Origin: an uncultured virus (IMG/VR IMGVR_UViG_3300007759_000001)
Taxonomy: Duplodnaviria; Heunggongvirae; Uroviricota; Caudoviricetes
Reading direction: 5' to 3' (one strand)
Virus record (IMG/VR): IMGVR_UViG_3300007759_000001
DNA length: 20,000 bases
Of the stretch, positions 1 to 16,376 are shown piece by piece (within the stretch, counting starts at the first letter, position 1; each line of letters opens with the position of its first letter). The translations under genes and the position numbers were made by a program. The notes beneath the pieces are model-generated. The model saw only the letters and a list, made by a program, of their open reading frames with translations. It was not told the origin of the DNA and made no database searches.

Positions 1-176
1 CGTCTGATCTTTACGACGAGGTGGAATGCGGCGCACCACGAACGGCGGTTCATGAGAACGGTTCCGATGGTTGGACTTGCGAAGCGGGTCATCATCATTG
101 GGAATACGGTTCTCCGATGCAGGCAGCCGAAGAAGCCGAAGAGGCTTGGGCAGAACGAGCCGGAATGGCTTGGTGA
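1..176 (+). CDS. 3' part of small hypothetical phage protein (…ECGAPR…WTCEAGHHHWEY…AERAGMAW*)
   Basis: Open frame from nt 3 to TGA 174-176, followed directly by a terminator; Cys/His motif. Confidence 0.7.
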   Translation, partial: SDLYDEVECGAPRTAVHENGSDGWTCEAGHHHWEYGSPMQAAEEAEEAWAERAGMAW

Positions 177-184
177 TCCGATCT

Positions 185-209
185 AGCCCCCCACATCGGG
201 GGGCTTTTT
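185..209 (+). terminator. Rho-independent terminator
   Basis: agcccccc-acatc-ggggggct-tttt followed by cgcgtg. Confidence 0.85.
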
Positions 210-285
210 CGCGTGCGGAGTCGAATAGTCCCGAGTTTCGGTCGGGTTGGCGGGGCTTGCGGTGTCTAAAGGGGTGTAGACGCGA

Positions 286-308
286 GAAAACCCCCGCCGA
301 AGCGGGGG
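286..308 (-). terminator. Rho-independent terminator (UUCG loop)
   Basis: On minus strand cccccgc-ttcg-gcggggg-ttttc followed by cgcgtc. Confidence 0.85.
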
Positions 309-322
309 CGTTCTTCACTCGT

Positions 323-440
323 TAGTGATCGGACAGGGAGTCGAACCCTGCAATACTTGGGCAACACGGTTTCACGCTGTAATACGCCACGCCGTGCAGT
401 TACATTACCCAAGGACACCGTGCCTCATCTTTGGCCGACC
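323..440 (-). ncRNA. tRNA-like ncRNA with enlarged anticodon domain
   Basis: Own promoter (480-452) and terminator, no SD-led ORF; acceptor GGUCGG/CCGAUC+A, canonical T-arm CAGGG-UUCGACU-CCCUG, long stem CUUGGGUAA/UUGCCCAAG enclosing about 40 nt. Confidence 0.65.
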
Positions 441-451
441 TCGTAATACTA

Positions 452-521
452 AGTATAGCACAAGGGTGAGGCAATGTCAAGTCTGATTCGACTTGACAGG
501 GGCTAGTGACTATGCTATAAT
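452..521. promoter_or_regulatory. Divergent sigmaA promoter pair
   Basis: Minus TTGACA(480-475)-17-TATACT(457-452); plus TTGACA(493-498)-17-TATAAT(516-521). Confidence 0.9.
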
Positions 522-547
522 ACTTGTAGTGGGAGAAAGTACCCCGC

Positions 548-566
548 TTAGTTGACAACTAAATAG
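548..566 (+). promoter_or_regulatory. boxA-like leader element GTTGACAACTAAATAG
   Basis: Between 5' hairpin and SD; repeated at 1287(-), 5169(-), 6294, 6936, 7538, 8215, 8847, 9320. Confidence 0.6.
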
Positions 567-579
567 AAGGAGAATCCCA

Positions 580-753
580 ATGGGAATCACAACCGACCTC
601 CGTAGCCGTAACGGGCGACCAGTAGGGACCGGATTCACCGGCCTAGTCCAATGTGACGAATGTAGCGATTACGGCCACATCGACACATTCGATGAGATGG
701 TGGCCGGGGGGTGGTACACAAACATTGCAGGATGCGCCTGCCCCAAGGATTGA
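580..753 (+). CDS. 57-aa Cys-rich putative Zn-binding protein (MGITTDLRS…CDEC…GW…CACPKD)
   Basis: SD AAGGAG, ATG 580, TGA 751-753, terminator 760-785; below ORF-track cutoff. Confidence 0.85.
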   Translation: MGITTDLRSRNGRPVGTGFTGLVQCDECSDYGHIDTFDEMVAGGWYTNIAGCACPKD

Positions 754-759
754 GGATTG

Positions 760-785
760 GCCCCCGGCTTCGGTCGGGGGCTTTT
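760..785 (+). terminator. Rho-independent terminator
   Basis: gcccccggc-ttcg-gtcgggggc-tttt then cgcgtc. Confidence 0.9.
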
Positions 786-802
786 CCGCGTCCGAAGTTG
801 GA

Positions 803-952
803 CTAAAGGCGTCGGCCCCGGCGGTAACCAGTCCCGGCATATGCCTTCATGAGTTCCCGTTCCAGTTCATCAGTCATAACTTGATTATGATAGTAATAAT
901 GGTTAGTTCTTGGCTTTAGAAGATGCTTTACTTTATTGAATAGAGTTTTCAT
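803..952 (-). CDS. 49-aa basic hypothetical protein in AT-rich insert (MKTLFNKVKHLLKPR…RRGRRL)
   Basis: ATG 952, TAG 805-803, purine-rich upstream, TAGAAT at 987-982. Confidence 0.55.
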   Translation of the reverse strand: MKTLFNKVKHLLKPRTNHYYYHNQVMTDELERELMKAYAGTGYRRGRRL

Positions 953-1041
953 TATTCTTTCTTGCTTGTCGGTCAGCCTTTATTCTACCGGATGAACTTG
1001 TGAATCGGTTCACTTGTTCTATGGCAGGCGTCACTAAGCCC

Positions 1042-1055
1042 CGAACATTCGTTCG
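1042..1055. promoter_or_regulatory. LexA (SOS) box
   Basis: CGAAC-ATTC-GTTCG matches the Gram-positive/actinobacterial consensus; lies inside the 31-bp site. Confidence 0.6.
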
Positions 1056-1093
1056 ACCATCGGGACTAAACGGGGGGCGGAACCCTAGACGCG

Positions 1094-1121
1094 AAGAAAC
1101 CCCGACCGATTGGCCGGGGTT
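1094..1121 (-). terminator. Rho-independent terminator
   Basis: aaccccggcc-aatc-ggtcggggtt-tctt then cgcgtc on minus strand. Confidence 0.85.
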
Positions 1122-1132
1122 CCCTCTTGAGA

Positions 1133-1270
1133 TTAGATGAACTCTAGGAGATCACCGTCAGCGATTTCGTCGTATTCGACGCCGTTCGCTTCAGCGATTG
1201 CCTCCCAGAGATCGTCCTCGTCCACTGGGGCTTCCCAGTCTACGAGGTCCATCCAGTTTATGACTGTCAT
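1133..1270 (-). CDS. 45-aa highly acidic protein (MTVINWMDLVDWEAPVDEDDLWEAIAEANGVEYDEIADGDLLEFI)
   Basis: SD AGGAGG, ATG 1270, TAA 1135-1133; own promoter, boxA-like leader and terminator; 15 D/E, no K/R. Confidence 0.9.
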   Translation of the reverse strand: MTVINWMDLVDWEAPVDEDDLWEAIAEANGVEYDEIADGDLLEFI

Positions 1271-1326
1271 GGATTGCCTCCTAAGGCTATTTAGTTGTCA
1301 ATGAAGGGGTTTCCCTCCATGAAGTA

Positions 1327-1395
1327 AGTATAGCACACTAGGATGACATTGTCAAATCCGACTGACTTGACATTGTCTCACGGGTATGCTATACT
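1327..1395. promoter_or_regulatory. Divergent sigmaA promoter pair
   Basis: Minus TTGACA(1355-1350)-17-TATACT(1332-1327); plus TTGACA(1367-1372)-17-TATACT(1390-1395); 11 bp between the -35 boxes. Confidence 0.9.
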
Positions 1396-1483
1396 TATTC
1401 TATCAAGAAGGGATGGCGCAGATGCCCGTAAAGCGCCCCCGCCGCGGCTACGGCCCCAGCGGGGAACGAACGAAGGAGAAGCA

Positions 1484-1639
1484 ATGAAGATCGAACATGA
1501 TCTCATGCTTGTCGAACATAAAGGCACGCTTGCCGAGTTTCAGGCCCAGATGGAAGAACTCCATCGTTGGGCTAGGGGCGAGGGCGAGTGGAACGACGAA
1601 GCATGGGAAGCGTTGGATGAACCGACGCTAAACTACTAG
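1484..1639 (+). CDS. 51-aa acidic hypothetical protein (MKIEHDLMLVEH…)
   Basis: SD AAGGAG before ATG 1484 (the upstream part of the track ORF is translated promoter); terminator 1644-1669. Confidence 0.85.
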   Translation: MKIEHDLMLVEHKGTLAEFQAQMEELHRWARGEGEWNDEAWEALDEPTLNY

Positions 1640-1643
1640 AAGC

Positions 1644-1669
1644 AGCCCCCACTCCGGTGGGGGTTTCTT
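1644..1669 (+). terminator. Rho-independent terminator
   Basis: agcccccac-tccg-gtgggggtt-tctt then cgcgtc. Confidence 0.85.
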
Positions 1670-1737
1670 CGCGTCCCCAATCAGTCCCGAAACTGTCATC
1701 CACTTGCGGGGCTGCGGCGGATGAGATAGAATAAGAC

Positions 1738-1953
1738 ATGGCCCGAGAGAAGTACCGCCCGGAATCAAACTACGAAAACTTGACTAATCCTATTTATTGG
1801 GTAGAATGGGTTGATTCCGAGGGCGAGATTCGTCATTGCCTTCGTTCTTTGATCGGGATTCTCCCCGAAGGCACCAAGATCATCTATCCTCCGTCCCCGC
1901 AAGCCCCGAGGGCGCGAGAAAGCCCCCCACCGAAGCGGGGGGCTGACCACTAG
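1738..1953 (+). CDS. 71-aa hypothetical protein, probably leaderless
   Basis: TTGCGG(1704)-17-TAGAAT(1727-1732), ATG 5 nt downstream; C-terminus runs into the opposing terminator. Confidence 0.5.
   Translation: MAREKYRPESNYENLTNPIYWVEWVDSEGEIRHCLRSLIGILPEGTKIIYPPSPQAPRARESPPPKRGADH
1918..1944 (-). terminator. Rho-independent terminator
   Basis: agccccccgc-ttcg-gtggggggct-ttt on minus strand. Confidence 0.85.
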
Positions 1954-2054
1954 GCCGGATCTGCCGGATCCTCGTAGCCCTCTCCGAAGAGATCCCATTG
2001 TTCGGGATGCTCCGCGTAGAAGTCCTCCGGGTAATCCTCGTAGAAGTCGTCCAT
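1950..2054 (-). CDS. 34-aa acidic-aromatic micropeptide (MDDFYEDYPEDFYAEHPEQWDLFGEGYEDPADPA)
   Basis: SD AAGGAG, ATG 2054, TAG 1952-1950, own promoter, 5' hairpin and terminator. Confidence 0.85.
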   Translation of the reverse strand: MDDFYEDYPEDFYAEHPEQWDLFGEGYEDPADPA

Positions 2055-2103
2055 GATGGCTCCTTGCCGTCGTGTGGGAGGCGGCCCCCTCCCACTAACC
2101 ACA

Positions 2104-2172
2104 AGTATAGCACAGGGCTAGGACAATAGCAAATCGGCCCGACTTGACATTGTCGTAAGGGTGTGGTATACT
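2104..2172. promoter_or_regulatory. Divergent sigmaA promoter pair
   Basis: Minus TTGCTA(2132-2127)-17-TATACT(2109-2104); plus TTGACA(2144-2149)-17-TATACT(2167-2172). Confidence 0.85.
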
Positions 2173-2177
2173 TATTG

Positions 2178-2309
2178 TGTTGAGTGAAAGCAGCGGAAAG
2201 ACCGCCGGGGACGCGAAACCCCGCACGGGCAGCACAAAGAAATGACCGACCGGCCCGCAGCAAAAAGTCTCCACCAATGGGTTATCCCGACAGGTGGGGG
2301 CTTTTTTTT
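2178..2309 (+). ncRNA. About 130-nt multi-hairpin small RNA
   Basis: Promoter-to-terminator unit with no SD-led ORF; hairpins gcgg/ccgc, cgggg/ccccg, cgggc/gcccg; terminator with U8 at 2265-2309. Confidence 0.6.
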
Positions 2310-2387
2310 GTCCCTCGTTACGTCCCGGCGGGCTGCGCCCCCTTCGGGACTCGCGCAGGTGCGCGGCTGCGCCCGCATAACGCCGAC

Positions 2388-2416
2388 TTGACACTGTCAT
2401 GCTGGTGTGCTAGAAT
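2388..2416 (+). promoter_or_regulatory. sigmaA promoter
   Basis: TTGACA-17-TAGAAT with TGTCAT in the spacer. Confidence 0.85.
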
Positions 2417-2442
2417 ACTGGTATCACGAAGGAGGTGATTTT

Positions 2443-2577
2443 ATGAGTTACATCCCTTGTGGCTGGCACGAACCCAGCGCCACTCAAATGAAGTGGCTGA
2501 AGGAAGAGCAGCGACGGCGCAACGCCGAAGCGGCTGCCGACTTCGCACGCGAGGTGGAAGAGGCTGATTTAGCCTAA
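2443..2577 (+). CDS. 44-aa hypothetical protein (MSYIPCGWHEPSATQMKWLKEEQRRR…)
   Basis: SD AAGGAGGTG, ATG 2443, TAA 2575-2577, terminator 2587-2612 then cgcgtc. Confidence 0.85.
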   Translation: MSYIPCGWHEPSATQMKWLKEEQRRRNAEAAADFAREVEEADLA

Positions 2578-2673
2578 CCCACCACCGCCCCCCCCGCAAG
2601 GGGGGGCTTTTTCGCGTCTACACCCGCCCGAACCCCCGCGCCAGCCCCGAGGGCTGCGGCCCTATTCGGGACT

Positions 2674-2755
2674 CGCGCGCCCACGCGTGCGTGCGCGCCC
2701 ACGCGTGCGTGCGCCTGCGTGCGTGACTTGCCCCTGACTTGCCCCTGACTTGACA
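2674..2755. repeat. Short tandem repeats and alternating purine-pyrimidine tract upstream of a promoter
   Basis: gcgcccacgcgtgcgtgc x2 and tgacttgcccc x2 leading into TTGACA 2750. Confidence 0.7.
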
Positions 2756-2820
2756 CCGTCACAAGCGTCTGGTAAAGTATTGCTCGTCGGGGATCGTCCC
2801 CGATAATCCAAGGAGGCGTT

Positions 2821-3126
2821 ATGTATTTCAAAAATGCTCCTATCGTGGATTCTTGCTGGTACTGCGGGTGCGATTTGTACCTGCGTTACTCCTCGCACAT
2901 TGAGGGTAGCAAGATCACGGGTAGGAAGTTTTACGGCCTAGTGGACCGTCATGGTCACGGTACCTGCTCCGTTTCACGGCCTTTCGCTCCAAACTGCAAG
3001 TGGCAGGACCACGAACCCATCATGGGTCGCGTGGGTGAACCCTTCGATTCGGATCGCGTGGATCGCTGCGTGACCGTGAAGGGCAGGACGCTCCTAGACA
3101 GAGCGAATCGCTACGTCGTAGCGTAA
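2821..3126 (+). CDS. 101-aa Cys/His-rich hypothetical protein
   Basis: Promoter TTGACA(2750)-17-TAAAGT, SD AAGGAGG, CWYC motif, terminator 3132-3157. Confidence 0.85.
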   Translation: MYFKNAPIVDSCWYCGCDLYLRYSSHIEGSKITGRKFYGLVDRHGHGTCSVSRPFAPNCKWQDHEPIMGRVGEPFDSDRVDRCVTVKGRTLLDRANRYVVA

Positions 3127-3131
3127 TCTTG

Positions 3132-3157
3132 GAAACCCCCCGAAAGGGGGGTTTCTT
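3132..3157. terminator. Terminator between convergent genes
   Basis: gaaacccccc-gaaa-ggggggtttc-tt then cgcgtc. Confidence 0.85.
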
Positions 3158-3168
3158 CGCGTCTGGGG

Positions 3169-3921
3169 TCAAACGGATTTAGGGCCATTCTGACCCCCCC
3201 CACCGTAGGTGTAGGTCACTTTGGGGGCTGGGACGGGCTTGGGGGGGCTGTACAAGGCTGTGACGGCATTCCACGCAACAGGTGTGACCCTTGTTTTCGA
3301 TGCGAGTTCCGCAAATCCATCCAACGACATGTCTGCGCCACCGTAAACAACAATGTTTCGGTGCTCATTTCGGGGATAACCGTACGGCAAACGTACCCCG
3401 TTGCCTAGTCCTTGCCCTGTTAGCACCAACTGTTTCGGGTTGACCTCCACTGTCGGTGCATCAACTACGTTGCATGCACCGATCAGTCCTTCTCGTACTT
3501 TGCGCGCCGGGAGTGGTTCCTCAAAAAATACCCACAGGTGGTAGCCTTTGGATCGGGAGCGTTCTATCCATGAAGTTACTTGAAGTTGTTGTAGTACAGT
3601 CTGGAGGTTGACGGCGTGGGCTAGTGAGGCTTCTTCGCCTTCGTCAAAGTCTACGCACCCCCATTGGGTGACGTAGACGGCTGCGTCGTCTTCGGTGTTG
3701 TGTCGTGTCAACGGGTAAACACCGATGTTGGGTTTGTCTGCGTTGGTGAGGTGGTCTTCAACAGCCGTTGTGTAGCCTGCTCCTGTTGCTTTGTGCCATC
3801 CTCCGGCAGGGTTTTCCCATGGGCGAAACCCTTTATTGTCCGTGGGGTCGTCGGTGGCGATGTGTCCGCCTGCGAATAGGGCGGCGAACAGGTTTATTGT
3901 GTGGCGTGAGACATCTTCCAT
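3169..3921 (-). CDS. Archaeo-eukaryotic primase (AEP) superfamily primase/polymerase domain, possibly C-terminally truncated
   Basis: Motifs IGVYPL, WGCVDFD (DxD), ERSRSKGYHLWVFF (SxxGxH), EVNPKQ, GNGVRLP. Confidence 0.8.
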   Translation of the reverse strand: MEDVSRHTINLFAALFAGGHIATDDPTDNKGFRPWENPAGGWHKATGAGYTTAVEDHLTNADKPNIGVYPLTRHNTEDDAAVYVTQWGCVDFDEGEEASLAHAVNLQTVLQQLQVTSWIERSRSKGYHLWVFFEEPLPARKVREGLIGACNVVDAPTVEVNPKQLVLTGQGLGNGVRLPYGYPRNEHRNIVVYGGADMSLDGFAELASKTRVTPVAWNAVTALYSPPKPVPAPKVTYTYGGGGQNGPKSV

Positions 3922-4094
3922 TGTTTCCTCTCCATCCCAGATGCTCTGTCGAAGTATTGGACGAGTTGCCCTGCTTCGATGATGTCTTTATTTGTTGTGA
4001 TTTGGTCGGAGCCGTGCAGGTAGTGTAGTGCTTGGGCGATGAGGCGTGTTTCGTCGGGGGACAGTATCGCTGTCGTGTATTCAGTCGTAGTCAT
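3894..4094 (-). CDS. 66-aa hypothetical protein
   Basis: Overlaps both neighbours in the minus-strand operon. Confidence 0.65.
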   Translation of the reverse strand: MTTTEYTTAILSPDETRLIAQALHYLHGSDQITTNKDIIEAGQLVQYFDRASGMERKQWKMSHATQ

Positions 4095-4218
4095 CGATGA
4101 GTCTTTCTAGCAGGTCGATGGCTTCGATGGCGAGTTTGACGTTGTTGTCGTCGTTGCCTAGTCGCCGTAAGGCTCTCAGTATGAGCCATCGTTCACGGTT
4201 TTCTACTTCAAGCATCAT
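4081..4218 (-). CDS. 45-aa helical hypothetical protein (MMLEVENRERWLILRALRRLG…LIDDYD)
   Basis: ATG 4218, TGA 4083-4081, overlaps the start of the next gene. Confidence 0.6.
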   Translation of the reverse strand: MMLEVENRERWLILRALRRLGNDDNNVKLAIEAIDLLERLIDDYD

Positions 4219-4380
4219 TTGTGGTACAACCGTTTCTTATAAGGAAGAGGTGCAAAGAAACTCCAGTTATTTTGTAGGTCGATAAGTATTCGACTAACGG
4301 TCATCGTCGGGCTCGGCTCACGCGACTGATCGCTTTGGCGCAGTCGTCGCCCATGGCCCACAGAGGCGCTAATACGGGGT

Positions 4381-4821
4381 TTAGGGGCCAAGATAGTTCT
4401 CTTCATTCACTATGGATTCGCACTGGCACTCATCATGACACGGGTAACCCAACGCGTGAATATGAAGTTGCGCCGTCCCTATCACCGCTTTCACACTCTT
4501 CGTCATCTGTCGATAAAGAAGTTCAGGATCATCACCACGCATCAGATCAAACGGCCCCATCATCACAGCGAACTCCGCCTGCTCCAATCTGTTGTCCGAA
4601 TCCACGATTGCCATGTGTAGCCCCGCATGGGCGCACAACATGCGGGACGAAGGGAGATGTTCTTCATCACAGTCAGCCCAAAGTTGATAAGTATCTAAAC
4701 GATAAGAGAACTGATAATAGTTTTCTACTTCAACTTGTTCCGACAACATTTGGTTGAACGAGATGAACTTGCCAAAGAGTTTGCGCGCCTTCTCGTAACT
4801 GATCGCCATGAAGGACATCAT
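4381..4821 (-). CDS. Hypothetical protein of about 146 aa (possibly leaderless from ATG 4809)
   Basis: Long ORF with protein-like composition; TATGAT -10-like box shortly before MAISY. Confidence 0.75.
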   Translation of the reverse strand: MMSFMAISYEKARKLFGKFISFNQMLSEQVEVENYYQFSYRLDTYQLWADCDEEHLPSSRMLCAHAGLHMAIVDSDNRLEQAEFAVMMGPFDLMRGDDPELLYRQMTKSVKAVIGTAQLHIHALGYPCHDECQCESIVNEENYLGP

Positions 4822-4903
4822 AAGCCCCGCAGTCTGTTGAGTAGTGGACCTCCTTGAAGAAGCGGGGCTAAAGGGGTGGAGGGGAGGCTTTCGCCCCCCC
4901 CTC

Positions 4904-4917
4904 CGAACACCTGTTCG
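4904..4917. promoter_or_regulatory. LexA (SOS) box
   Basis: CGAAC-ACCT-GTTCG, upstream of the minus-strand primase block. Confidence 0.65.
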
Positions 4918-4918
4918 A

Positions 4919-5158
4919 TCAGACGATCACTTCCGTCTGAACGATGTGGCCCTCGTTCTCAAGATAGGTGTAAATCCACTCCCTGACCGCTGTGTCAGTC
5001 ACCTCAGGGTGACCACACGCTGTCACCTCCGCTTCGACTCGCCCTACCAGCGCCTCCGCAGTGACTGCGTGGGTGAAGGACAGGACGATCTCCAGTTGGC
5101 GCTGGAGGGACGCTAGGACCATCCTGTCGCCCTCATGGGTGTACATGCTGAACTGCAT
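4919..5158 (-). CDS. 79-aa hypothetical protein (MQFSMYTHEGDRMV…)
   Basis: SD GAGGAG, boxA-like leader, own promoter; hairpin 4878-4904 downstream. Confidence 0.85.
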   Translation of the reverse strand: MQFSMYTHEGDRMVLASLQRQLEIVLSFTHAVTAEALVGRVEAEVTACGHPEVTDTAVREWIYTYLENEGHIVQTEVIV

Positions 5159-5207
5159 GTTGTCTCCTCTTGTTGTCAACAAGTGGGGCGCTTCCCCACT
5201 AAGAAAC

Positions 5208-5276
5208 AGTATAGCACACTGGTATGACAGTGTCAAATCGGGCTGACTTGACAATGTCACACAGGGGTGCTATAAT
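5208..5276. promoter_or_regulatory. Divergent sigmaA promoter pair
   Basis: Minus TTGACA(5236-5231)-17-TATACT(5213-5208); plus TTGACA(5248-5253)-17-TATAAT(5271-5276). Confidence 0.9.
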
Positions 5277-5282
5277 ACCTAC

Positions 5283-5498
5283 ATGGCAACGAAGCAGAAC
5301 ACCGACGCAGTCGCAGCGATGTTCGCAACCCTCGCCACGCTTGGAGGCAATCACGCCTACCGGGCAGCGAAAGCGACCTACCGTCGCACTTGGGGAGCGG
5401 AGCGGGCACGCAAGGCGCAAGTACGGGCCGTGGAAGCGGAACGGGCGAGGCGCTACGCAGCGCTTGGCATCACGCCACGCGACATCTTCACTGACTGA
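5283..5498 (+). CDS. 71-aa Ala/Arg-rich protein, leaderless
   Basis: ATG 6 nt downstream of TATAAT, no SD. Confidence 0.8.
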   Translation: MATKQNTDAVAAMFATLATLGGNHAYRAAKATYRRTWGAERARKAQVRAVEAERARRYAALGITPRDIFTD

Positions 5499-5542
5499 GA
5501 ATCGGCCCTGACCGGGGGTGGCAACAGAACCGGTCGAAACAC

Positions 5543-5610
5543 CTTCCAGTCATGTAGAGGAGTGGGCAACGCCAGTATGGGTTGTAGGAGTTCGATTCTC
5601 CGCTGGAGGA
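5543..5610 (+). ncRNA. Degenerate tRNA-like element (acceptor stem plus T-arm)
   Basis: CUUCCAG/CUGGAGG+A; GGAG-UUCGAUU-CUCC; no canonical D or anticodon arm. Confidence 0.5.
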
Positions 5611-5645
5611 CTTGACAGTGTCGCACCTATGTGCTATACTATTAC

Positions 5646-5931
5646 TAACAGATCGAAGCCCTGCCAATAGGCAGGCGAATCGGAGGGGGACATAGCCTGA
5701 GTCGCGCTCAAGGCGAGTCCGTGACAGGATGGTATCTGTCACTCAGTCACCACGGCTGAGTAAAGCGGCTCTCCCCCAATGTCTAAGTGCTGGCGAATAC
5801 CACGCCAGCCGAGAACCGGCCAGCAACCCTGAAATGGCGTTGTTGCGAAGAACCGGCGCATTCGCGGAAGCGGTGATCCAGAGATGGACGCCGACTAGCC
5901 CCCGAGCCAGATCCCCCGAAAGGGGGTTTCT
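5646..5931 (+). ncRNA. About 285-nt highly structured ncRNA
   Basis: Promoter TTGACA(5612)-17-TATACT(5635); at least 7 hairpins; terminator 5911-5931 then cgcgtc; no SD-led ORF. Confidence 0.65.
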
Positions 5932-6020
5932 GCGCGTCTAGCCCCGCTTTTTGTTGCGACTTCCGGGGCGGACTGAGGGGGGACGCGAAAGAGGGGAGCC
6001 TTTCGGCTCCCCCCGTTTCT

Positions 6021-6146
6021 TTAGACTCTTGGGTCCGTAGACCAGTGGTAATCTTCGGCCAGTATGGCATCGCATCTATGGCAACCGCCGTCGCATTCGC
6101 ACCCTTCTTCCATGTAGGGCGCTTCTAGCCAAGCGTCGTAGTCCAT
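6021..6146 (-). CDS. 41-aa acidic Cys-cluster peptide (MDYDAWLEAPYMEEGCECDGGCHRCD…)
   Basis: SD AGGAG, own promoter, terminator 5988-6020. Confidence 0.85.
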   Translation of the reverse strand: MDYDAWLEAPYMEEGCECDGGCHRCDAILAEDYHWSTDPRV

Positions 6147-6193
6147 CGTGTCTCCTAAGTTGTAGTTGTCGTGGCCGGTAGCCACTGAGAATA

Positions 6194-6264
6194 AGTATAG
6201 CACATGGGTATGACACTGTCAAACCGGCCCCCGACTTGACACTGTCACACTGGTATGCTATACT
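6194..6264. promoter_or_regulatory. Divergent sigmaA promoter pair
   Basis: Minus TTGACA(6222-6217)-17-TATACT; plus TTGACA(6236-6241)-17-TATACT(6259-6264). Confidence 0.9.
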
Positions 6265-6319
6265 TGTTTCTAGTGGGAGCAACTGCTACCCACGTTGACA
6301 ACTAAATAGGAGACAGAGG

Positions 6320-6535
6320 ATGCACATCCCAATGTGTACCATCCAGCACCCCACCACAAGCGGTGCCCGTCTGATCACCCTCTGGGTGAACGGCGACGCA
6401 GCGATCCTGTGGGGCGACACGGAGTACCGTTACGAGAATCTCAACGCTTTCGCAGCGATGGCGACTTTCACGGTCACGAAGTCGATGGGCCAACTGGCTA
6501 ACTACATCAAGCGCAACAGCGACTTGGTGGGCTGA
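6320..6535 (+). CDS. 71-aa hypothetical protein
   Basis: Hairpin, boxA-like element and SD in leader; terminator 6540-6570 then cgcgtc. Confidence 0.85.
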   Translation: MHIPMCTIQHPTTSGARLITLWVNGDAAILWGDTEYRYENLNAFAAMATFTVTKSMGQLANYIKRNSDLVG

Positions 6536-6665
6536 GCGAAAGGGGAGGGGCGAAAGCCTCTCCCCTTCGTCGCGTCTAGAGCCAAGTCAATCAGCCCCGC
6601 CCCCCCAACTGCCTGCGGGGCGCACCCGGACGCGGGAAAACCCCCCTTTCGGGGGGTTCACCGGC

Positions 6666-6785
6666 TTACTCCTCAGAGTAAGTCCCCGCGTAGGGCGACG
6701 GATCGTCGTCCCAACGGCTGGGGTCCGGCCCGTACCACTCAGCCGCGAGGGCTTCGTAGTCCAGTTCGTCTCCTGCTGGATTCAT
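6666..6785 (-). CDS. 39-aa acidic micropeptide (MNPAGDELDYEALAAEWYGPDPSRWDDDPSPYAGTYSEE)
   Basis: SD AAGGAGGTG, ATG 6785, TAA 6668-6666, terminator 6636-6659. Confidence 0.9.
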   Translation of the reverse strand: MNPAGDELDYEALAAEWYGPDPSRWDDDPSPYAGTYSEE

Positions 6786-6841
6786 GTCTCACCTCCTTGG
6801 GTGAATCAGTGGGGCACTTTCTGGCCCCTCCAACAACAATA

Positions 6842-6910
6842 AGTATAGCACATGGGTAGGACAGTGTCAAACTGGGCCGAGTTGACAGTGTCACACCAGT
6901 ATGCTAGACT
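6842..6910. promoter_or_regulatory. Divergent sigmaA promoter pair
   Basis: Minus TTGACA(6870-6865)-17-TATACT; plus TTGACA(6882-6887)-17-TAGACT(6905-6910). Confidence 0.9.
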
Positions 6911-6961
6911 CTCTCTTAGTGGCCGACCCGGTCACGTTGACAACTAAATAGGAGACACATC

Positions 6962-7252
6962 ATGGCTCGTAAGACCAATCCGTTCGGGCGCATCGTCCCA
7001 CAAGACGATCCCTACGCCACCTACGTCAATGACGCAGGATGGACTTGGTACGTCGTAAAGACCTACCAGCATCCGGACAACGAGGATGGCTACTCCCGGT
7101 GGTTCTGCTACGTCTCGTCCCCGCACACATTCGGTGGATTCGACTTGGGAGACGTTTACCGGAAGGACGTTCTAGAGAACGCCCGACTGCTGAACGGCAC
7201 CGACGAGTGGATCGTGAACTACTCACGATTCGTTCACGGAGTTACAGTCTGA
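6962..7252 (+). CDS. 96-aa aromatic-rich phage protein (possibly DUF2958-like)
   Basis: Cassette leader and SD; WTWYV…RWFC.VSSP…G.FDLGDVY pattern; terminator 7254-7281; family assignment is tentative. Confidence 0.85.
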   Translation: MARKTNPFGRIVPQDDPYATYVNDAGWTWYVVKTYQHPDNEDGYSRWFCYVSSPHTFGGFDLGDVYRKDVLENARLLNGTDEWIVNYSRFVHGVTV

Positions 7253-7338
7253 GAAGGGGGAGGGCGAAAGCCCTCCCTTTTCCGCGTCCTGAATCAGTCC
7301 CGATCCCCGCTGCTGGCTGCGGGGCTAAACAAGACGCG

Positions 7339-7435
7339 AAAAAAGCGACGAGATCGAAAGGACGTATTCGCCTGTTGCTAGTTCCCTAATCGGGTCGAAT
7401 GGCGCTGATACGCATTGTCTCATCGCTTTCTTCAC
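7339..7435 (-). ncRNA. About 97-nt rod-like small RNA
   Basis: Promoter TTGACA(7469-7464)-17-TATACT(7446-7441); 5' aaagcgatgaga pairs with 3' tctcgtcgcttt followed by U-tract and cgcgtc. Confidence 0.65.
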
Positions 7436-7440
7436 AAGTA

Positions 7441-7509
7441 AGTATAGCATACCAGTGTGACATTGTCAAACTGGGCCGATTAGACGCTGTCACACCTATC
7501 TGCTATACT
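7441..7509. promoter_or_regulatory. Divergent promoter pair
   Basis: Minus promoter is consensus; plus TAGACG / TGTCAC(7488)-N10-TATACT(7504-7509). Confidence 0.85.
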
Positions 7510-7561
7510 TGTATCTAGTGGATGGGACACCATCTGCGTTGACAACTAAATAGGAGACACC

Positions 7562-7876
7562 ATGCTGAACTACAGCAATGTGATCGGATTCGATCTGGGC
7601 TGCCACGTTGATGGCACTCACGGCTGGCGTGCGATTTCGCATCTGGTTCTGAACGTGTTGGACGACTACGCCACGGAATCGCAGAAGCGCATCATGCGTG
7701 CCTACGACCGTGGTTGGACGATTGCCAACATTCCAGACGTAGCGATGGAGATCGTGGACGAAGTGGAAGATGCTTTCCATGAGCATGTTTCATCGTTTGG
7801 AGTGACTTCGATGTGGATGGACGGAGAATGGTTCGTCGTCACGGAAGAAGATGCTCTGGCAGCGTCAGGCTGGTAG
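7562..7876 (+). CDS. 104-aa acidic hypothetical protein
   Basis: Cassette leader and SD; terminator 7889-7917 then cgcgtc. Confidence 0.85.
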   Translation: MLNYSNVIGFDLGCHVDGTHGWRAISHLVLNVLDDYATESQKRIMRAYDRGWTIANIPDVAMEIVDEVEDAFHEHVSSFGVTSMWMDGEWFVVTEEDALAASGW

Positions 7877-8004
7877 GTCGAAGAAATAGGAGCGCCATCC
7901 GAAAGGGTGGCGCTTCTGCGCGTCTGGAGTCAAGTCGATCAGCCCCGACTCCCGCTCCAGTACCGGGGCTAAATGGCTGCCCCCCCGTGAAGGGGGGCGG
8001 TGGA

Positions 8005-8085
8005 CTAACCGGTGAACCGGTCAGAACACACCAACCAAAGCGCCGCGCAAACGGTCACGATGGGCAGTAATGGTAGGAATACCAT
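8005..8085 (-). CDS. 26-aa single-pass membrane micropeptide (MVFLPLLPIVTVCAALWLVCSDRFTG)
   Basis: Promoter TTGACT(8152-8147)-17-TAGAAT(8129-8124), SD AAAGGA, TAG 8007-8005, hairpin 7979-7998. Confidence 0.75.
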   Translation of the reverse strand: MVFLPLLPIVTVCAALWLVCSDRFTG

Positions 8086-8123
8086 CGTTTCCTTTCTGTA
8101 TCCGCTCCTTGCGGAATAAAACT

Positions 8124-8192
8124 ATTCTATTACACGGATGAGACATAGTCAAGTCAGGCCGATTTGACACTGTCACACTAGTCTGCTATACT
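8124..8192. promoter_or_regulatory. Divergent sigmaA promoter pair
   Basis: Minus TTGACT-17-TAGAAT; plus TTGACA(8164-8169)-17-TATACT(8187-8192). Confidence 0.85.
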
Positions 8193-8240
8193 TGTTCTAG
8201 TGGCCGAGGGGCCATTGACAACTACATAAAGGAGCATCCG

Positions 8241-8393
8241 ATGGCAAAGCGCCTACGGAATACCGCTCGCATTCAGTACGAGTGCGAGGGGAACTGCGAC
8301 GGCAACATGATGGGACCATACCCGTGTGTTGTTTGTACGAAGTACGTCGATGGCGTACCGGTCGGGATGGAAATGTTCCCGGCTAGCAAGTAG
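8241..8393 (+). CDS. 50-aa putative Zn-binding protein (MAKRLRNTARIQYECEGNC…CVVC…)
   Basis: SD AAGGAG, TAG 8391-8393, terminator 8397-8423. Confidence 0.85.
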   Translation: MAKRLRNTARIQYECEGNCDGNMMGPYPCVVCTKYVDGVPVGMEMFPASK

Positions 8394-8484
8394 GGAGAAG
8401 GAGGGCTTCGGCCCTCCTTTTTTCGCGCCCCGACACGCCCCGGCCCTCGCACCAACCGGCGGGGCTAAATAAGACCAGACGCGC

Positions 8485-8744
8485 AAAAACCCCCCGCTTC
8501 CGTGTCAGGACTTCTAGTTCGTTTCACGCTTTCGTGCGTGGGGTGGAGGAACTGCGTTGCGGACCCAGCGTTTGGCCTCAAACCCTACAATCGGGCTACT
8601 GTCTCCGTGGCGGACTTTCGTCCTTTCTGTCCCTGTCCCATCGACACTGGCGGTTCTGGTAAAGAACTAGCCTAGTTCCTGTGGAATCGGGGGGTTTCTG
8701 TGGTTTCTAGAAACCCTCGCGTTGGGGTTTTCTCTCCCCAACAA
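8485..8744 (-). ncRNA. About 260-nt structured ncRNA closed by a long-range terminal helix
   Basis: Promoter TTGACA(8778-8773)-17-TATACT(8755-8750); aaaccccccg near the 5' end pairs with cggggggttt at the 3' end, then U-tract and cgcgtc; internal hairpins. Confidence 0.6.
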
Positions 8745-8749
8745 CAATA

Positions 8750-8821
8750 AGTATAGCATACTGGTGCGACATTGTCAAACCGGCCCCCGACTTGGTGACT
8801 GTCATACCGGGGTGCTAGACT
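8750..8821. promoter_or_regulatory. Divergent promoter pair
   Basis: Minus promoter is consensus; plus TGTCAT(8800)-N10-TAGACT(8816-8821). Confidence 0.8.
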
Positions 8822-8871
8822 TGTTCTCAGTGGCCGGAAGGGTCACGTTGACAACTGAATAGGAGACTGTC

Positions 8872-9078
8872 ATGGCGCACAAGCATGACATTGACGACAC
8901 CAACGGCGACGTTATGGATCGGGTCTACTTCTGCGGCGATTACTGCCACCGGAGTTGGTGCCAGAACCAGAACGTGGACTACGCCGGTTGGGACGGCTGC
9001 CACGAACTGGAGTTCGACACCCCCTGCGATTCGTGCGGGGATACGATCCCCGGCGTCGAAGGGCCGTATGTCTACTGA
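8872..9078 (+). CDS. 68-aa acidic Cys-rich putative Zn-binding protein
   Basis: Cassette leader and SD; CGDYC…CDSCG; terminator 9084-9106 then cgcgtc. Confidence 0.85.
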   Translation: MAHKHDIDDTNGDVMDRVYFCGDYCHRSWCQNQNVDYAGWDGCHELEFDTPCDSCGDTIPGVEGPYVY

Positions 9079-9168
9079 GAACTGGGGGGCTTCGGCCCCC
9101 CCTTTTCCGCGTCCCGAATCAGCCCCGAACCCACGCACCAACAGCGGGGCTAAATAAGGCGGGACGCG

Positions 9169-9216
9169 CAAAGCAGTGACGTATCGCTGTGATACAGCAG
9201 GTCCGTTGACCCGATA
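9169..9216 (-). ncRNA. Tiny RNA cassette of about 50 nt
   Basis: Consensus promoter 9250-9222; two small hairpins (gggtc-aacg-gacct; gtatc-acagc-gatac) then ttt-g-cgcgtc; no ORF. Confidence 0.5.
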
Positions 9217-9221
9217 AAGTA

Positions 9222-9290
9222 AGTATAGCACATGGGTGAGACAATGTCAAATCGGGCTGACTTGACAGTGTCACACCCGGCGTGTATACT
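9222..9290. promoter_or_regulatory. Divergent sigmaA promoter pair
   Basis: Minus TTGACA(9250-9245)-17-TATACT; plus TTGACA(9262-9267)-17-TATACT(9285-9290). Confidence 0.9.
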
Positions 9291-9343
9291 TGTGGTTAGT
9301 GGATGGGACAAGCCATCCCTTGACAACAGAATAAGGAGACATC

Positions 9344-9583
9344 ATGACCCGCAAGGATTATGAAGCCTTCGCTACAATCGTAAAGGATCTCAACGAGTTC
9401 CGGTTCGATACGGCGATGGTACTGGTTGCCGCAAAGATGGCAGCCGTGTTCGCAGCCGATAACGAGCGCTTTGACGCTCTGCGGTGGTACAACGCCTGTG
9501 GCGTTGACGGCGAACTGGCCGTGCGACTTCTTCGGATTGAGGAAGGCCACGGCGCAACGGCTCACCACCCGGTGAGCCTGTAA
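9344..9583 (+). CDS. 79-aa small phage protein (MTRKDY…DNERFD…NACG pattern)
   Basis: Cassette leader and SD AAGGAG; hairpin 9595-9618 downstream. Confidence 0.85.
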   Translation: MTRKDYEAFATIVKDLNEFRFDTAMVLVAAKMAAVFAADNERFDALRWYNACGVDGELAVRLLRIEEGHGATAHHPVSL

Positions 9584-9616
9584 GACGCAAGTCGGTGGGG
9601 GGCTACGGCCCCCCAC

Positions 9617-9645
9617 TTGACAAGCAGGCACCGGTATGCTATACT
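9617..9645 (+). promoter_or_regulatory. sigmaA promoter for the mini-tmRNA
   Basis: TTGACA(9617-9622)-17-TATACT(9640-9645). Confidence 0.9.
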
Positions 9646-9658
9646 AGTGCCAAGCACC

Positions 9659-9740
9659 GGGGGTGATCGGTGTAGACGGAAGTGAAAGCCGCATGTCGGA
9701 ACGCTTTCGGACCGGAGTTCGATTCTCCGCACCTCCACGA
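9659..9740 (+). ncRNA. Mini-tmRNA: tRNA-like domain of tmRNA without the mRNA-like domain
   Basis: Acceptor GGGGGUG/CACCUCC with G3:U70 and A73; D-loop analogue AUCGGUGUAGAC; helix GGAAGUG/CGCUUUC; GGAC; T-arm CGGAG-UUCGAUU-CUCCG; terminator 9769-9796. Confidence 0.8.
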
Positions 9741-9850
9741 AGTTGTCAACACGGCAATCGCCGGACAGAACCCCTGACCAATCGGTTGGGGGTTTTGTCG
9801 CGTACCCGTTTAGCCCCGGCCTCCCGAGGCGGGGAAGCCCCGAAAAATAA

Positions 9851-9899
9851 CTAAAAAAAACGGGACGGTCCGAGTTGGTTCTAAAAAAACGGGACGGTC
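9851..9899 (+). repeat. Direct repeat CT(A)nCGGGACGGTC x2
   Basis: Copies at 9851-9870 and 9881-9899; core AACGGGACGG also near 13031, 18318 and 19118. Confidence 0.7.
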
Positions 9900-9963
9900 G
9901 GGGGTTTGGGTCGGATCGGGTGTGGTTGCGGTGTCTATGTAATAAGAAGGCAAATGCGGTGAT

Positions 9964-9977
9964 CGAACACATGTTCT
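9964..9977. promoter_or_regulatory. LexA (SOS) box
   Basis: TCGAAC-ACAT-GTTCTA directly followed by TGTCACACC. Confidence 0.6.
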
Positions 9978-10008
9978 ATGTCACACCGGTAGGGATGGTC
10001 TTGGTGAT

Positions 10009-10137
10009 CTGAGCCAATGCTGCGACTGTGGCGAATGGACGGACATTGAGCCGTGCTACACCATAGACGAAACGCCGGACGGGGCGCTTTGCCCTGAGTG
10101 CGACCCGACGGACCACGACAAGGTCTACCCGGTCTGA
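10009..10137 (+). pseudogene. Zn-finger-like ORF remnant (…QCCDCGEW…LCPECDP…YPV*) with no ATG/GTG start
   Basis: CxxC…CxxC frame ending at TGA 10135-10137 before a UUCG hairpin; no in-frame canonical start after TAA 9943. Confidence 0.4.
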
Positions 10138-10310
10138 TCTGGTGGGACTTCGGTCCCCCCCTGACTAGACCGACTTGACAACTGTCATACCCGTATGCTA
10201 TACTACGGGTCTAACGTAAACGCTCGTTATCTACGGGCACCGAATAAGGGTCGGATCAGACCCCCATTCGGTGTCTTAGGGGTAACGGCTAACATAGGAA
10301 AGAGAAGGAC

Positions 10311-10574
10311 ATGGACAACACTTACCGGAACCTCCGGTTCACGCGTCACGCTATCGACATGGCTATTGCCCGTATCGACGGCGTGGACACACCGGAGCAG
10401 GCAAAGGCTCTGATGCGAAGCGAATACATCGCGTCGAAGATCACCTATGCCTCAAAGCGCCATCCTGAGCAAGACAAGATTCAGGGTGACCACATTTGTA
10501 TGGCCTACGAGCGGGCTGCACACAAGATCGTGACGCTGTTCATCAGCGGGCATGTGAGTGTCACACCCCGGTAG
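10311..10574 (+). CDS. 87-aa protein, possibly DUF4258/RelE-like
   Basis: Promoter TTGACA(10175)-18-TATACT, SD; LRFTRHA…KIVTLF pattern; family assignment is inference. Confidence 0.8.
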   Translation: MDNTYRNLRFTRHAIDMAIARIDGVDTPEQAKALMRSEYIASKITYASKRHPEQDKIQGDHICMAYERAAHKIVTLFISGHVSVTPR

Positions 10575-10692
10575 TAACATACAGGGAGTCGGCAAGGGGG
10601 TCGTGGCAGAACGACTGTCACACCCCCATGCTAGACTATCACTTAGTGGATGGAAAGCCCATCCGCTGATCAGACCCACATAGGAGACTAGC

Positions 10693-11103
10693 GTGGATAC
10701 TACTACCGCCGTAGCGGGCATCGGCACCGCAAGGAAGATGGCAACGGCTATGGCAGCCACCGCCGTCCAGACTGTTGCCCAGCAGGTCGCTGACCTAAAG
10801 GCGATGGTCAAGGAGGCTTCCGACGCCTACCGTGAGGCTGAGAACGCGTTTCTTGCCTTGGGTGAGGACGAGGTTGTTCTGTCGGACGGACGGACTGTTC
10901 AGGTCGTCCATTCGCAGGTGCGAGAGATCGACACCGATGCGATTCAGGCCATCCTCCCGACCGATGTGTTTGATCGGATTGCTAAGACTTCGGTCGTGGC
11001 TACCCGGTTCGACGCGGAGGTCGAAGCAGGACGACTGGACGAGGGTGCTGTCGCCAGCACGATCTCGTTCAAGGACCGCAAGCCAGCGGTCAAGATCGTC
11101 TGA
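10693..11103 (+). CDS. 136-aa hypothetical protein with N-terminal coiled coil
   Basis: TGTCAC(10616)-N10-TAGACT promoter, 5' hairpin, SD AGGAG, GTG start; hairpin after stop. Confidence 0.85.
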   Translation: MDTTTAVAGIGTARKMATAMAATAVQTVAQQVADLKAMVKEASDAYREAENAFLALGEDEVVLSDGRTVQVVHSQVREIDTDAIQAILPTDVFDRIAKTSVVATRFDAEVEAGRLDEGAVASTISFKDRKPAVKIV

Positions 11104-11266
11104 TCCGGTCGGGGAGGGACTTCGGTCCCTCCCCGGCTGTCCGCTTGGTGGGTCGGGGAACAGGACAGGAGCGTTAGCGCGTTCCGGCAGTCCCCGGTCC
11201 ACCATTTGACAAGTATCATACCCGTGTGCTATACTAATAGCATACCAACTAGTAGAAAGACAAGAC

Positions 11267-11560: not shown

Positions 11561-11614
11561 TTTGATGGCGGGGGGGCGTTTCTTGTCCTTTCTCCCCCCC
11601 GCCGTCATCCACTT

Positions 11615-11723
11615 GGGGTAGCCCATAGGGTTAGAGTTATCTCGCTGGCAACAGCGAGTGTTTACGACACGCAAACTGAGCAGTTTCGACTTACTCAGGC
11701 ATCGTGGTCCTATGGGTTGCCCC
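11615..11723 (+). ncRNA. Intergenic multi-way junction RNA element
   Basis: 15-bp closing helix 11615-11629/11709-11723 enclosing three hairpins with GCAA, UACG-type and UUCG loops. Confidence 0.6.
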
Positions 11724-16374: not shown

Positions 16375-16376
16375 CC

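Follow-up and report, generated by a model that had tools for sequence, protein, structure and literature searches.

An alternating array of predicted one-gene cassettes in an uncultured marine phage and its probable plasticity at repeated junctions

The DNA analysed here (the window) comprises 20,000 nucleotides of the uncultured virus record IMGVR_UViG_3300007759_000001, corresponding to 20846–40852, minus strand, of the 53.9-kb viral contig G001, and from 185 to 9810 it holds a regular array of small cassettes in what is presumably an early region. Judged by its predicted signals, each accessory gene or small RNA of the array is an autonomous one-gene transcription unit, laid out as a near-consensus promoter with an extended -10 box, usually a 5' stem-loop, a ribosome-binding leader, the payload and an intrinsic terminator (Table 1). 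The units are packed as back-to-back doublets, in which a promoter module is shared and the terminators face each other across an inverted repeat. We consider it probable that this is a plastic early region whose cassettes are exchanged at repeated two-way junctions, that is, a two-way form of the principle known from the promoter-early stem-loop (PeSL) cassettes of T4-type phages. This reading builds on the grammar of the units, its conservation in four relatives, replacements and insertions or deletions (indels) with crossovers inside junctions, uneven divergence of the cassettes and purifying selection on their open reading frames (ORFs).

A generic scan for sigma-70-like promoters found 41 sites in the window, compared with 10.4 +/- 3.4 in 50 shuffles, and the stricter pattern TTGACA-N14-TGnTATAMT (at most one mismatch) matched 21 times, compared with 0.00 in 200 shuffles; 18 of these 21 lie within 452–9645. 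With degenerate copies included, 24 promoter-bearing units stand between 445 and 9810. Twenty of their promoters form ten divergent pairs, with -35 boxes 11–13 nt apart, and co-oriented promoters occur in the run 2144–3162 and in the pairs 5248/5612 and 9262/9617. Each divergent pair constitutes a quasi-palindromic module of ~85 bp, and the ten modules have a mean identity of 69% (range 55–81%). Directly after the -35 box, 20 of the 24 array promoters carry nTGTC (TTGACAnTGTC), as do only 2 of 12 outside the array (Fisher p 1.9e-4), and in most of the array promoters concerned this completes a palindrome, TGACAnTGTCA, that overlaps the -35 box. That TGTC is retained in a spacer which elsewhere varies hints at an operator, and TGACAnTGTCA may thus be a candidate operator for coordinated shut-off. 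Immediately upstream of the 2750 promoter there are tandem repeats (2675–2752; an 18-nt unit x2.2 and the 11-nt unit TGACTTGCCCC x2.6), the last copy of which supplies the -35 box of that promoter.

At the other end of the units, hairpins (dG <= -9) followed by a T-run and CGCG(T/C) gave 21 raw matches in 1–9900 and 1 in 9901–20000. The 21 matches represent 17 distinct sites, or 18 if one antisense to c08 and inside it is counted, and three further RNA ends have weaker hairpins. Most terminators are convergent, and on direct reading the terminator module is roughly symmetric, with CGCGTC at one flank and GACGCG at the opposite one. Convergent terminators are separated by an inverted repeat, GYCCCG-N16/17-CGGGRC, whose spacing is constant and whose loop sequence is variable; ATCA often adjoins it at the left, and TAAA at the right. 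The whole window contains 16 distinct copies, against a mean of 0.37 in block shuffles; 13 of them are in 1–9900, 12 being intergenic, and 11 distinct copies (12 matches, one nested pair) were found in L110, one of the relatives described below.

The leaders are built to a common plan as well. The predicted 5' end reads (T/C)AGTGG in 10 of the 24 units (9 by scan and the tenth, at the 2132 promoter, by direct reading), and 14 of the 24 window promoters scanned are followed by a hairpin near the 5' end that scores z <= -2 relative to shuffles. Protein-coding units mostly have such a hairpin, with arm sequences that vary by unit while complementarity is kept, and in many leaders the order is hairpin, then (G)TTGACAACTAAATAGGAGACA, then ATG. 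The evidence for the hairpins consists of single-sequence folds; RNAalifold gave no pairs for 16 leaders, since their stems differ in length and were not alignable with MAFFT. A 5'-terminal stem-loop is an established stabiliser of mRNA, and the hairpins may stabilise the cassette mRNAs in this way. In its basic layout the array is as a first-pass annotation, made from the letters alone, had described it, with more than 20 promoter-led units (24 by our count), a mostly alternating orientation, 5' hairpins often opening with AGUGG, and terminators followed by CGCGTC (17–18 distinct sites in our reading).

The same grammar recurs in related phages. Metagenome sequences were scanned with the divergent-pair pattern, which returned ten loci on nine contigs, and four of these contigs, from separate records (L104, L106, L107 and L110), have the array grammar. 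L106 aligns end to end with window 5600–7530 and is ~95% identical in 5658–6017, 6255–6573 and 6614–6930 (c15, c17 and c18), but falls to ~35–45%, the level of unrelated sequence, in exactly two slots, 6018–6174 (c16) and 6932–7289 (c19), both of which hold other intact ORFs with the same signals. L104 is without the doublet c20 and c21 and joins 7329 to 7938; it follows the left junction through ATCAGTCCCGA and then the right junction, which places the crossover in the left arm of the inverted repeat, the copies concerned being those at 7297..7325 and 7942. L107 is without four cassettes (8196–9215) and joins 8195 to 9216, with the crossover at the centre of a promoter module. L110 (14.7 kb) has, to the left of its array, a backbone that runs collinear with that of the window at 68–79% identity, with the exception of one 276-nt block at a different position. 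Its array has 15 promoter-like sites, one of them inside a conserved insert ORF; window homologs exist for only 3 of its 12 ORF payloads, the shared cassettes stand in another order, and one segment close to a terminator is flipped with respect to the backbone. Divergence is uneven, in that the c18 and c25 ORFs show 0 differences from L110 beside a pS of ~0.52 for c04 and the backbone identity given above, which indicates recent transfer of single cassettes.

Across these comparisons, 23 of 28 homology-block ends fall in junction elements, which make up 34% of the region, and so do all 22 ends of the 11 long-range joints in the run contigs described below; the joints are consistent with a mosaic picture but fall short of proof, any junction resembling any other. 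In the four relatives the junctions persist, and it is the payloads that are replaced, missing, moved or reordered; the shuffling by exchange at conserved junctions that the first-pass annotation had proposed is supported by the replacements, the indels and the crossovers inside junction motifs. Parts of the stretch were also detected in twenty sequencing runs from ten studies, with no RNA run listed among them. In eight of the runs at least 96% of the sampled words are present, and the source sample may account for seven of these eight. Contigs from four runs with only part of the stretch (three studies), taken at 85% likeness, cover most cassettes, leaving 2971–4290 almost bare and c21 at a mean word depth of 0.3–1.4; uncovered window parts in runs X9–X12 are weighed only jointly with L110, which lacks the same stretch.

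We suggest that host RNA polymerase would transcribe the units immediately after infection and that the payloads would act on the host or on its defences. The early region and the strongly acidic or Cys-rich nature of many payloads are the only hints that they may be anti-host effectors. As the junctions are many and near-symmetric, recombination between any two of them would restore working signals, and whole cassettes or doublets could be replaced, deleted, inserted, moved or flipped with expression kept. That a direct and an inverted exchange would alike restore a working unit is our proposed reason for the strict alternation. The crossovers fall in promoter modules, terminator hairpins and the inverted repeat, and a Pfam scan of ORFs from the window and the contig recognised no integrase, transposase or recombinase family (the contig being ~41% of the genome), which together argue against a single dedicated site. 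Given exact repeats of at most 23 nt, the exchange would depend either on a phage recombinase that acts on short homology or on illegitimate events with selection acting afterwards.

Several points weigh against exchange at the junctions. The array is known from sequence alone, and its promoters and terminators are predicted. The longest common substring between promoter modules is short (median 12 nt, maximum 23 nt), so that classical homologous recombination would be inefficient, and the cassette order in the near-identical copies G001 and L007 is that of the window, which means that the array is stable over short time scales. Several of the 28 block ends are contig ends and not true breakpoints, while many contig joints have short sides (21–39 nt) at 85% likeness. 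All four relatives come from metagenome assemblies, three of the contigs being <3 kb, and repeated junctions invite assembly chimeras. Finally, the sole PHROG match at E <= 0.001 among 22 proteins (c27 to phrog_19432, E 8.5e-6) is to a family of unknown function.

A different account takes the junction repeats to be expression signals only and attributes the mosaic to random illegitimate recombination with selection for products joined at gene boundaries, which is the classical view of actinophage mosaicism. The short exact homology between modules would suit it, and BLAST blocks end in conserved junctions anyhow, because any junction aligns with any other. However, both base-resolved indels switch parentage inside a conserved motif and leave a seamless hybrid junction, the replaced cassettes bring their own copy of the same signals, and the identity of two cassettes across genomes that differ by 20–30% points to frequent targeted exchange; we regard this account as unlikely. 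Less probable again is that GYCCCG-N16/17-CGGGRC is a dedicated recombinase site, part of an integron-like platform in which doublets are inserted and excised site-specifically. No member of the recombinase families named above was found in the Pfam scan of the incomplete contig, crossovers of other events lie in promoter modules or at the hairpins of terminators, and the cassettes, with their own promoters and both orientations, are unlike those of integrons. What speaks for such a site is the constant 16–17 bp spacing around a variable loop, the excess of the 12 intergenic copies in 1–9900 over the window-wide shuffle mean, the L104 crossover in the left arm, and the two genes with weak promoters (952..803 and 1738–1953) that adjoin a repeat copy and read away from it.

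The differences from the relatives might also be assembly artefacts, contigs having jumped between strains or repeats at the junctions, since the junctions are repeated, the assemblies are of short-read metagenomes, and the 100% identical L110 cassettes could reflect strain hopping. Yet the same picture is obtained from four contigs of separate records and from Logan contigs of four runs in three studies, the replaced slots contain new sequence with intact ORFs and signals instead of rearranged window sequence, and exact inter-module repeats of at most 23 nt are below the usual assembly k-mers, which are longer; we hold this to be very improbable. An array that serves as a sink, capturing host RNA polymerase right after infection with the payloads secondary, is the least credible possibility: the 18 strict-consensus extended -10 promoters within 9.2 kb, the 24 promoter-bearing units and the one unit with almost no payload would be in line with it, but the payload ORFs are under purifying selection and every unit has translation signals and a terminator. 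Beyond the exchange of cassettes at two-way junctions that we favour, a bolder proposal, decidedly unlikely in our judgement, is that the inverted repeat found between every two convergent terminators serves as a joint recognised by a protein, either for recombination or as a topological insulator, and would form, with the palindromic promoter modules, an orientation-independent, self-expressing platform. Were this true, the platform would be a phage counterpart of the integron, with self-promoted cassettes insertable either way round, and its pool would include regulatory RNAs such as a transfer-messenger RNA (tmRNA) stripped to its tRNA-like domain.

Among known systems the closest to the array is that of the PeSL cassettes, rather than the early regions of SPO1 or T5, and we conclude that the array applies a known principle in two-way form and is no new kind of system. 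In the accessible parts of the sources, PeSL cassettes are mobile regulatory cassettes of hyperplastic regions in T4-type phages (Arbiol et al., 2010, PMC2839356; further described in Comeau et al., 2014, PMC4122927), and the likeness extends to repeated strong sigma-70-type early promoters and stem-loop terminators around small orphan genes in a plastic region, to insertions, deletions and replacements that end in the repeats between related phages, and to cassettes that travel with their own expression signals. As described there, PeSL is a composite terminator-promoter between genes, whereas the array has separate two-way quasi-palindromic modules and alternating genes; the composite promoter and stem-loop motif is absent from the array, in which a hairpin abuts a promoter only at 9588–9645. 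Excised mini-circles, each with a cassette and a single chimeric motif, belong to the PeSL description as well. The fixed-spacing inverted repeat between convergent terminators, the operator-like TGACAnTGTCA in the promoters, the shared leader hairpin with its start-associated motif and the seven RNA payloads are features of the array only. The array phage shows no sign of being T4-type, in that the ORFs scanned from the 54-kb contig (~41% of the genome) included no recognisable T4 core gene and WhiB is present. The SPO1 host-takeover module and the T5 pre-early region are clusters of small early genes with many strong host-type promoters; we know of no repeated two-way junction grammar in them and of no documented cassette exchange at their junctions.

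With integron arrays there is a likeness in the row of small, unrelated, exchangeable cassettes split by imperfect inverted repeats. However, no integrase (IntI) is present among the Pfam-scanned ORFs of the incomplete genome, the 24 units have their own promoters on both strands and terminators, in contrast to the promoterless, co-oriented cassettes of an integron, and crossovers in the array fall in promoter modules too; the inverted repeat, moreover, is one that we take to be unlike attC. The leaders invite comparison with Cluster K mycobacteriophages, which carry a start-associated sequence (SAS) and an extended SAS (ESAS) upstream of gene starts (Pope et al., 2011, PMC3203893). As far as the available text of that paper goes, both systems have a conserved asymmetric motif with a Shine-Dalgarno core a few bases 5' of the starts of unrelated non-structural genes, frequently with an upstream inverted repeat of variable spacer, and the host phylum is probably the same. 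The motif itself differs, being TTGACAACTAAATAGGAGACA in the array leaders and the 13-bp GGGATAGGAGCCC, 3–7 bp upstream of starts, in Cluster K, and we thus take the leader motif of the array, as read from its sequence, to be an SAS analogue and not a member of the SAS family. In the array the predicted transcripts begin with the inverted repeat, and its arms stay complementary as the sequence changes, whereas the available text on Cluster K states that departures in ESAS do not support RNA pairing and does not describe the genes as individually bounded by promoters and terminators (PMC3203893).

No precedent for two-way promoter/terminator arrays was found in the literature on phages and actinophages that was covered, which excluded most subscription journals, and within the literature examined junction-mediated exchange of accessory genes has so far been documented for T4-type phages. 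The array would be an unusually regular case of such exchange in an apparently unrelated, probably actinobacterial, marine phage lineage. Its two-way symmetry offers a design rationale, as every recombinant would keep working signals in either orientation, and two of its sequence elements give concrete hypotheses, namely that TGACAnTGTCA may be an operator and that a protein may recognise the fixed-spacing inverted repeat as a joint. The pool of payloads is large and turns over fast, and is a source of candidate host-modulating products, including strongly acidic and Cys-rich micro-proteins, two structured RNAs without a family (~270–290 nt) and a mini-tmRNA.

With starts corrected by hand from the sequence, the array has 17 payload ORFs of 26–104 aa, all led by a Shine-Dalgarno sequence except one that is apparently leaderless, and ORFs occupy ~40% of ~8.0 kb (185–3168 + 4825–9810; from coordinates). 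They are mutually unrelated, as the first-pass annotation had it: among 20 proteins compared (the 17 payloads, a 146-aa protein and two insert ORFs) no pair was similar at E < 0.1. Nine window ORFs have homologs in the four relatives: seven belong to the 17 cassette payloads, and the other two are the 146-aa gene and an insert ORF, x1738. In the seven shared ORFs with enough differences, the 26-aa hydrophobic peptide included, pN/pS is 0.16–0.29, from which it follows that the shared micro-ORFs are real genes under purifying selection. None of 22 proteins scanned (17 payloads and 5 others) reached a Pfam gathering score. Strong acidity is frequent among the payloads (a net charge of -15 in 45 aa and of -13 in 34 aa, for instance), and others have 4–6 Cys. 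Among 5.8 billion proteins, the families of c19 and c27 amount to 9 and 6 clusters, unnamed except for two 'hypothetical protein' labels, and a protein identical to c19 is encoded on a 119-kb contig. AlphaFold2 modelled the c19 family with a mean pLDDT of 61, and all that an ESM Atlas search with c21 yielded was viral clusters without a name. Distant homologs of the 96-aa c19 payload occur in other phage lineages (GC 47–49%; loci L116–L118 and L122–L127), each preceded by its own lineage's conserved promoter-plus-hairpin module, and in one group the module takes the form of a perfect palindrome flanked by a -35-like box and a -10-like box. This placement of c19 homologs behind modules of their own lineages would mean that the design is widespread and the junction sequence lineage-specific.

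Seven of the 24 units (c02, c08, c15, c20, c24, c26 and c28) lack a Shine-Dalgarno-led ORF of at least 20 aa, in agreement with the earlier description of ORF-less RNAs set in the same frame; four of the seven fold better than shuffles (z <= -3), a signal that comes partly from their own terminator hairpins. A 94% identical copy of c08 is present in L110, placed after c09 instead of before it, and c26 looks like an emptied cassette related to c20. The c28 unit is the only ORF-less one in a known family, matching tmRNA (RF00023) at 59.3 bits (gathering 47; E 3.5e-21). It retains the tRNA-like domain only, that is, a T-arm and an acceptor stem with G3:U70 (read from the alignment), and 294 of the 374 tmRNA model positions are replaced by 6 nt, so that it has no mRNA-like, tag-encoding part and no pseudoknots; ARAGORN called no tRNA and no tmRNA, c28 included. 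This mini-tmRNA is conserved in L107, and the exact 3' 25-mer of c28 occurs in at least 120 reference-genome stretches, mostly, among the matches listed, in Coriobacteriia, an actinobacterial class, a distribution that gives a weak hint of an actinobacterial host phylum. We would speculate that the mini-tmRNA could be charged with alanine and interfere with ribosome rescue. The tail of c14 (5499–5611) has an exact 17-mer, GGAGTTCGATTCTCCGC, in common with the T-arm region of the mini-tmRNA; the tail matches no RNA family and folds no better than shuffles (z -1.0). T-arm-like hairpins are present in c02 and in 5499–5611, without a family match in focused Rfam scans, which gave no more than sub-threshold matches, both in 270–460, where the terminator hairpin drives them, and in 5490–5950.

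Table 1. Features of the array in window coordinates (P- and P+, predicted promoters on the two strands).
Feature	Coordinates	Strand	Description
Intergenic inverted-repeat copies	7297..7325; others start 228, 1038, 1684, 2322, 2644, 5941, 6594, 7942, 8437, 9122, 9837		
c02	280..445	-	~135 nt, z -1.9; terminator 310..280; T-arm-like hairpin; no tRNA called
Divergent module 1	445..528		-35 pair 480/493; P- 480..452, P+ 493-521
c03	528..791	+	5' hairpin, 57-aa ORF 580-753 (4 Cys), terminator
c04	1087..1320	-	45-aa ORF 1270..1133 (net charge -15), terminator; L110 homolog 76% aa, pN/pS 0.22
Divergent module 2	1320..1402		-35 pair 1355/1367; P- 1355..1327, P+ 1367-1395
c05	1402..1674	+	Long leader, 51-aa ORF 1484-1639, terminator
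c07	1912..2097	-	TAGTGG hairpin, 34-aa acidic ORF 2054..1950, terminator
Divergent module 3	2097..2179		-35 pair 2132/2144; P- 2132..2104 (-35 TTGCTA), P+ 2144-2172
c08	2179..2305	+	~127 nt, z -2.1, ends in terminator
c09	2388..2617	+	Promoter, 44-aa ORF 2443-2577, terminator
c10	2750..3162	+	Promoter (-10 TAAAGT), hairpin, 101-aa Cys-rich ORF 2821-3126, terminator
AT-skewed insert	3169..4406	-	AEP primase-like gene 3921..3169 (PF22548, AEP-TOTE) and small ORFs
146-aa gene after c13	4821..4381	-	Kept in L110, 82% aa, pN/pS 0.16
c13	4868..5201	-	TAGTGG hairpin, 79-aa ORF 5158..4919, closing hairpin
Divergent module 4	5201..5283		-35 pair 5236/5248; P- 5236..5208, P+ 5248-5276
c14	5283..5611	+	Apparently leaderless 71-aa ORF 5283-5498; ATG 6 nt past -10 box; 113-nt tail
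c15	5612..5937	+	Promoter and 291-nt structured RNA, z -4.56; ~96% identical in L106
c16	5983..6187	-	41-aa acidic 4-Cys ORF 6146..6021; L106 slot: unrelated 36-aa basic ORF
Divergent module 5	6187..6271		-35 pair 6222/6236; P- 6222..6194, P+ 6236-6264
c17	6271..6575	+	Hairpin, conserved leader, 71-aa ORF 6320-6535, terminator; L106 93% aa, pN/pS 0.21
c18	6630..6835	-	39-aa acidic ORF 6785..6666; 100% nucleotide identity in L110
Divergent module 6	6835..6917		-35 pair 6870/6882; P- 6870..6842, P+ 6882-6910
c19	6917..7287	+	96-aa ORF 6962-7252; L104 93% aa; replaced in L106
c20	7334..7434	-	~100 nt, one long hairpin, z -3.55; copies in L106, L110 at 78-79%
Divergent module 7	7434..7516		-35 pair 7469/7481; P- 7469..7441, P+ 7481-7509 (degenerate -35 TAGACG)
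c21	7516..7923	+	104-aa acidic ORF 7562-7876; absent from L104 along with c20
c22	7978..8117	-	26-aa hydrophobic ORF 8085..8005; homologs in L104, L107, pN/pS 0.19-0.24
Divergent module 8	8117..8199		-35 pair 8152/8164; P- 8152..8124, P+ 8164-8192; one L107-indel crossover site
c23	8199..8428	+	50-aa 4-Cys ORF 8241-8393, terminator
c24	8479..8743	-	265-nt structured RNA, z -4.25; no Rfam family
Divergent module 9	8743..8826		-35 pair 8778/8791; P- 8778..8750, P+ 8791-8819 (-35 TTGGTG)
c25	8826..9112	+	68-aa 6-Cys acidic ORF 8872-9078; 100% nucleotide identity in L110
c26	9164..9215	-	Promoter and ~50 nt, no stable fold, z +0.56
Divergent module 10	9215..9297		-35 pair 9250/9262; P- 9250..9222, P+ 9262-9290; second L107-indel crossover site
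c27	9297..9616	+	79-aa ORF 9344-9583; L107 85% aa, pN/pS 0.24; closing hairpin abuts next promoter
c28	9617..9803	+	Promoter, 82-nt tmRNA-like RNA 9659-9740, terminator; z -3.12 (149 nt folded, terminator included)

The source is a large marine phage, probably an actinophage. CheckV estimates the completeness of G001 at 41%, which implies a genome well >100 kb. Two WhiB-family regulators (PF02467) are encoded on G001, and as WhiB serves as a marker for phages of Actinobacteria in the accessible portion of a published account (PMC10914622), they point to an actinobacterial host. Megablast of window 1–10000 against phage records gave no match, nor did tblastn against phage records with a 498-aa marker protein (14602–16098), whose relatives, at 32–56% aa identity, are on IMG/VR contigs of up to 158 kb. 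A comparable promoter array was found in none of 75 distant marker loci, two of which have 3 single matches each, these 75 being counted apart from two further loci that are 100% copies. Viral contigs scanned with the leader, promoter and promoter-pair patterns yielded only the near-identical contig and unrelated single matches; a near-identical IMG/VR contig begins at about window 4150. Leaderless genes are linked with Actinobacteria, and the apparently leaderless c14 gene is compatible with such a host. Just left of the window (on the L005 side) are genes for a Fic domain protein, a (histone-)deacetylase-like protein and a dual-specificity phosphatase, preceded by the same kind of strong promoter but co-oriented, and together with the WhiB genes they look like an actinophage host-manipulation early region.

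The insert 3169..4406 has a strong AT skew and is not built on the cassette grammar, and L110 is without the whole ~2750–4381 stretch; an AEP primase-like paralog and a 66-nt repeat (88% identical) are found at G001 52689–53654, near the other end of the contig. Two shorter stretches, 800–1030 and 1713–1914, are inserted between convergent terminators beside a copy of the inverted repeat. The former is AT-rich and contains a 49-aa basic ORF (952..803); the latter contains the 71-aa ORF x1738 (1738–1953), which seems to be leaderless behind a TAGAAT box, enters the neighbouring terminator and is conserved in L110 at 72% aa. Beyond the end of the array (~9837–9900) every gene is on the + strand, and at 9837–9900, just past the last array unit, an A-run with CGGGACGGTC after it occurs twice in direct orientation.

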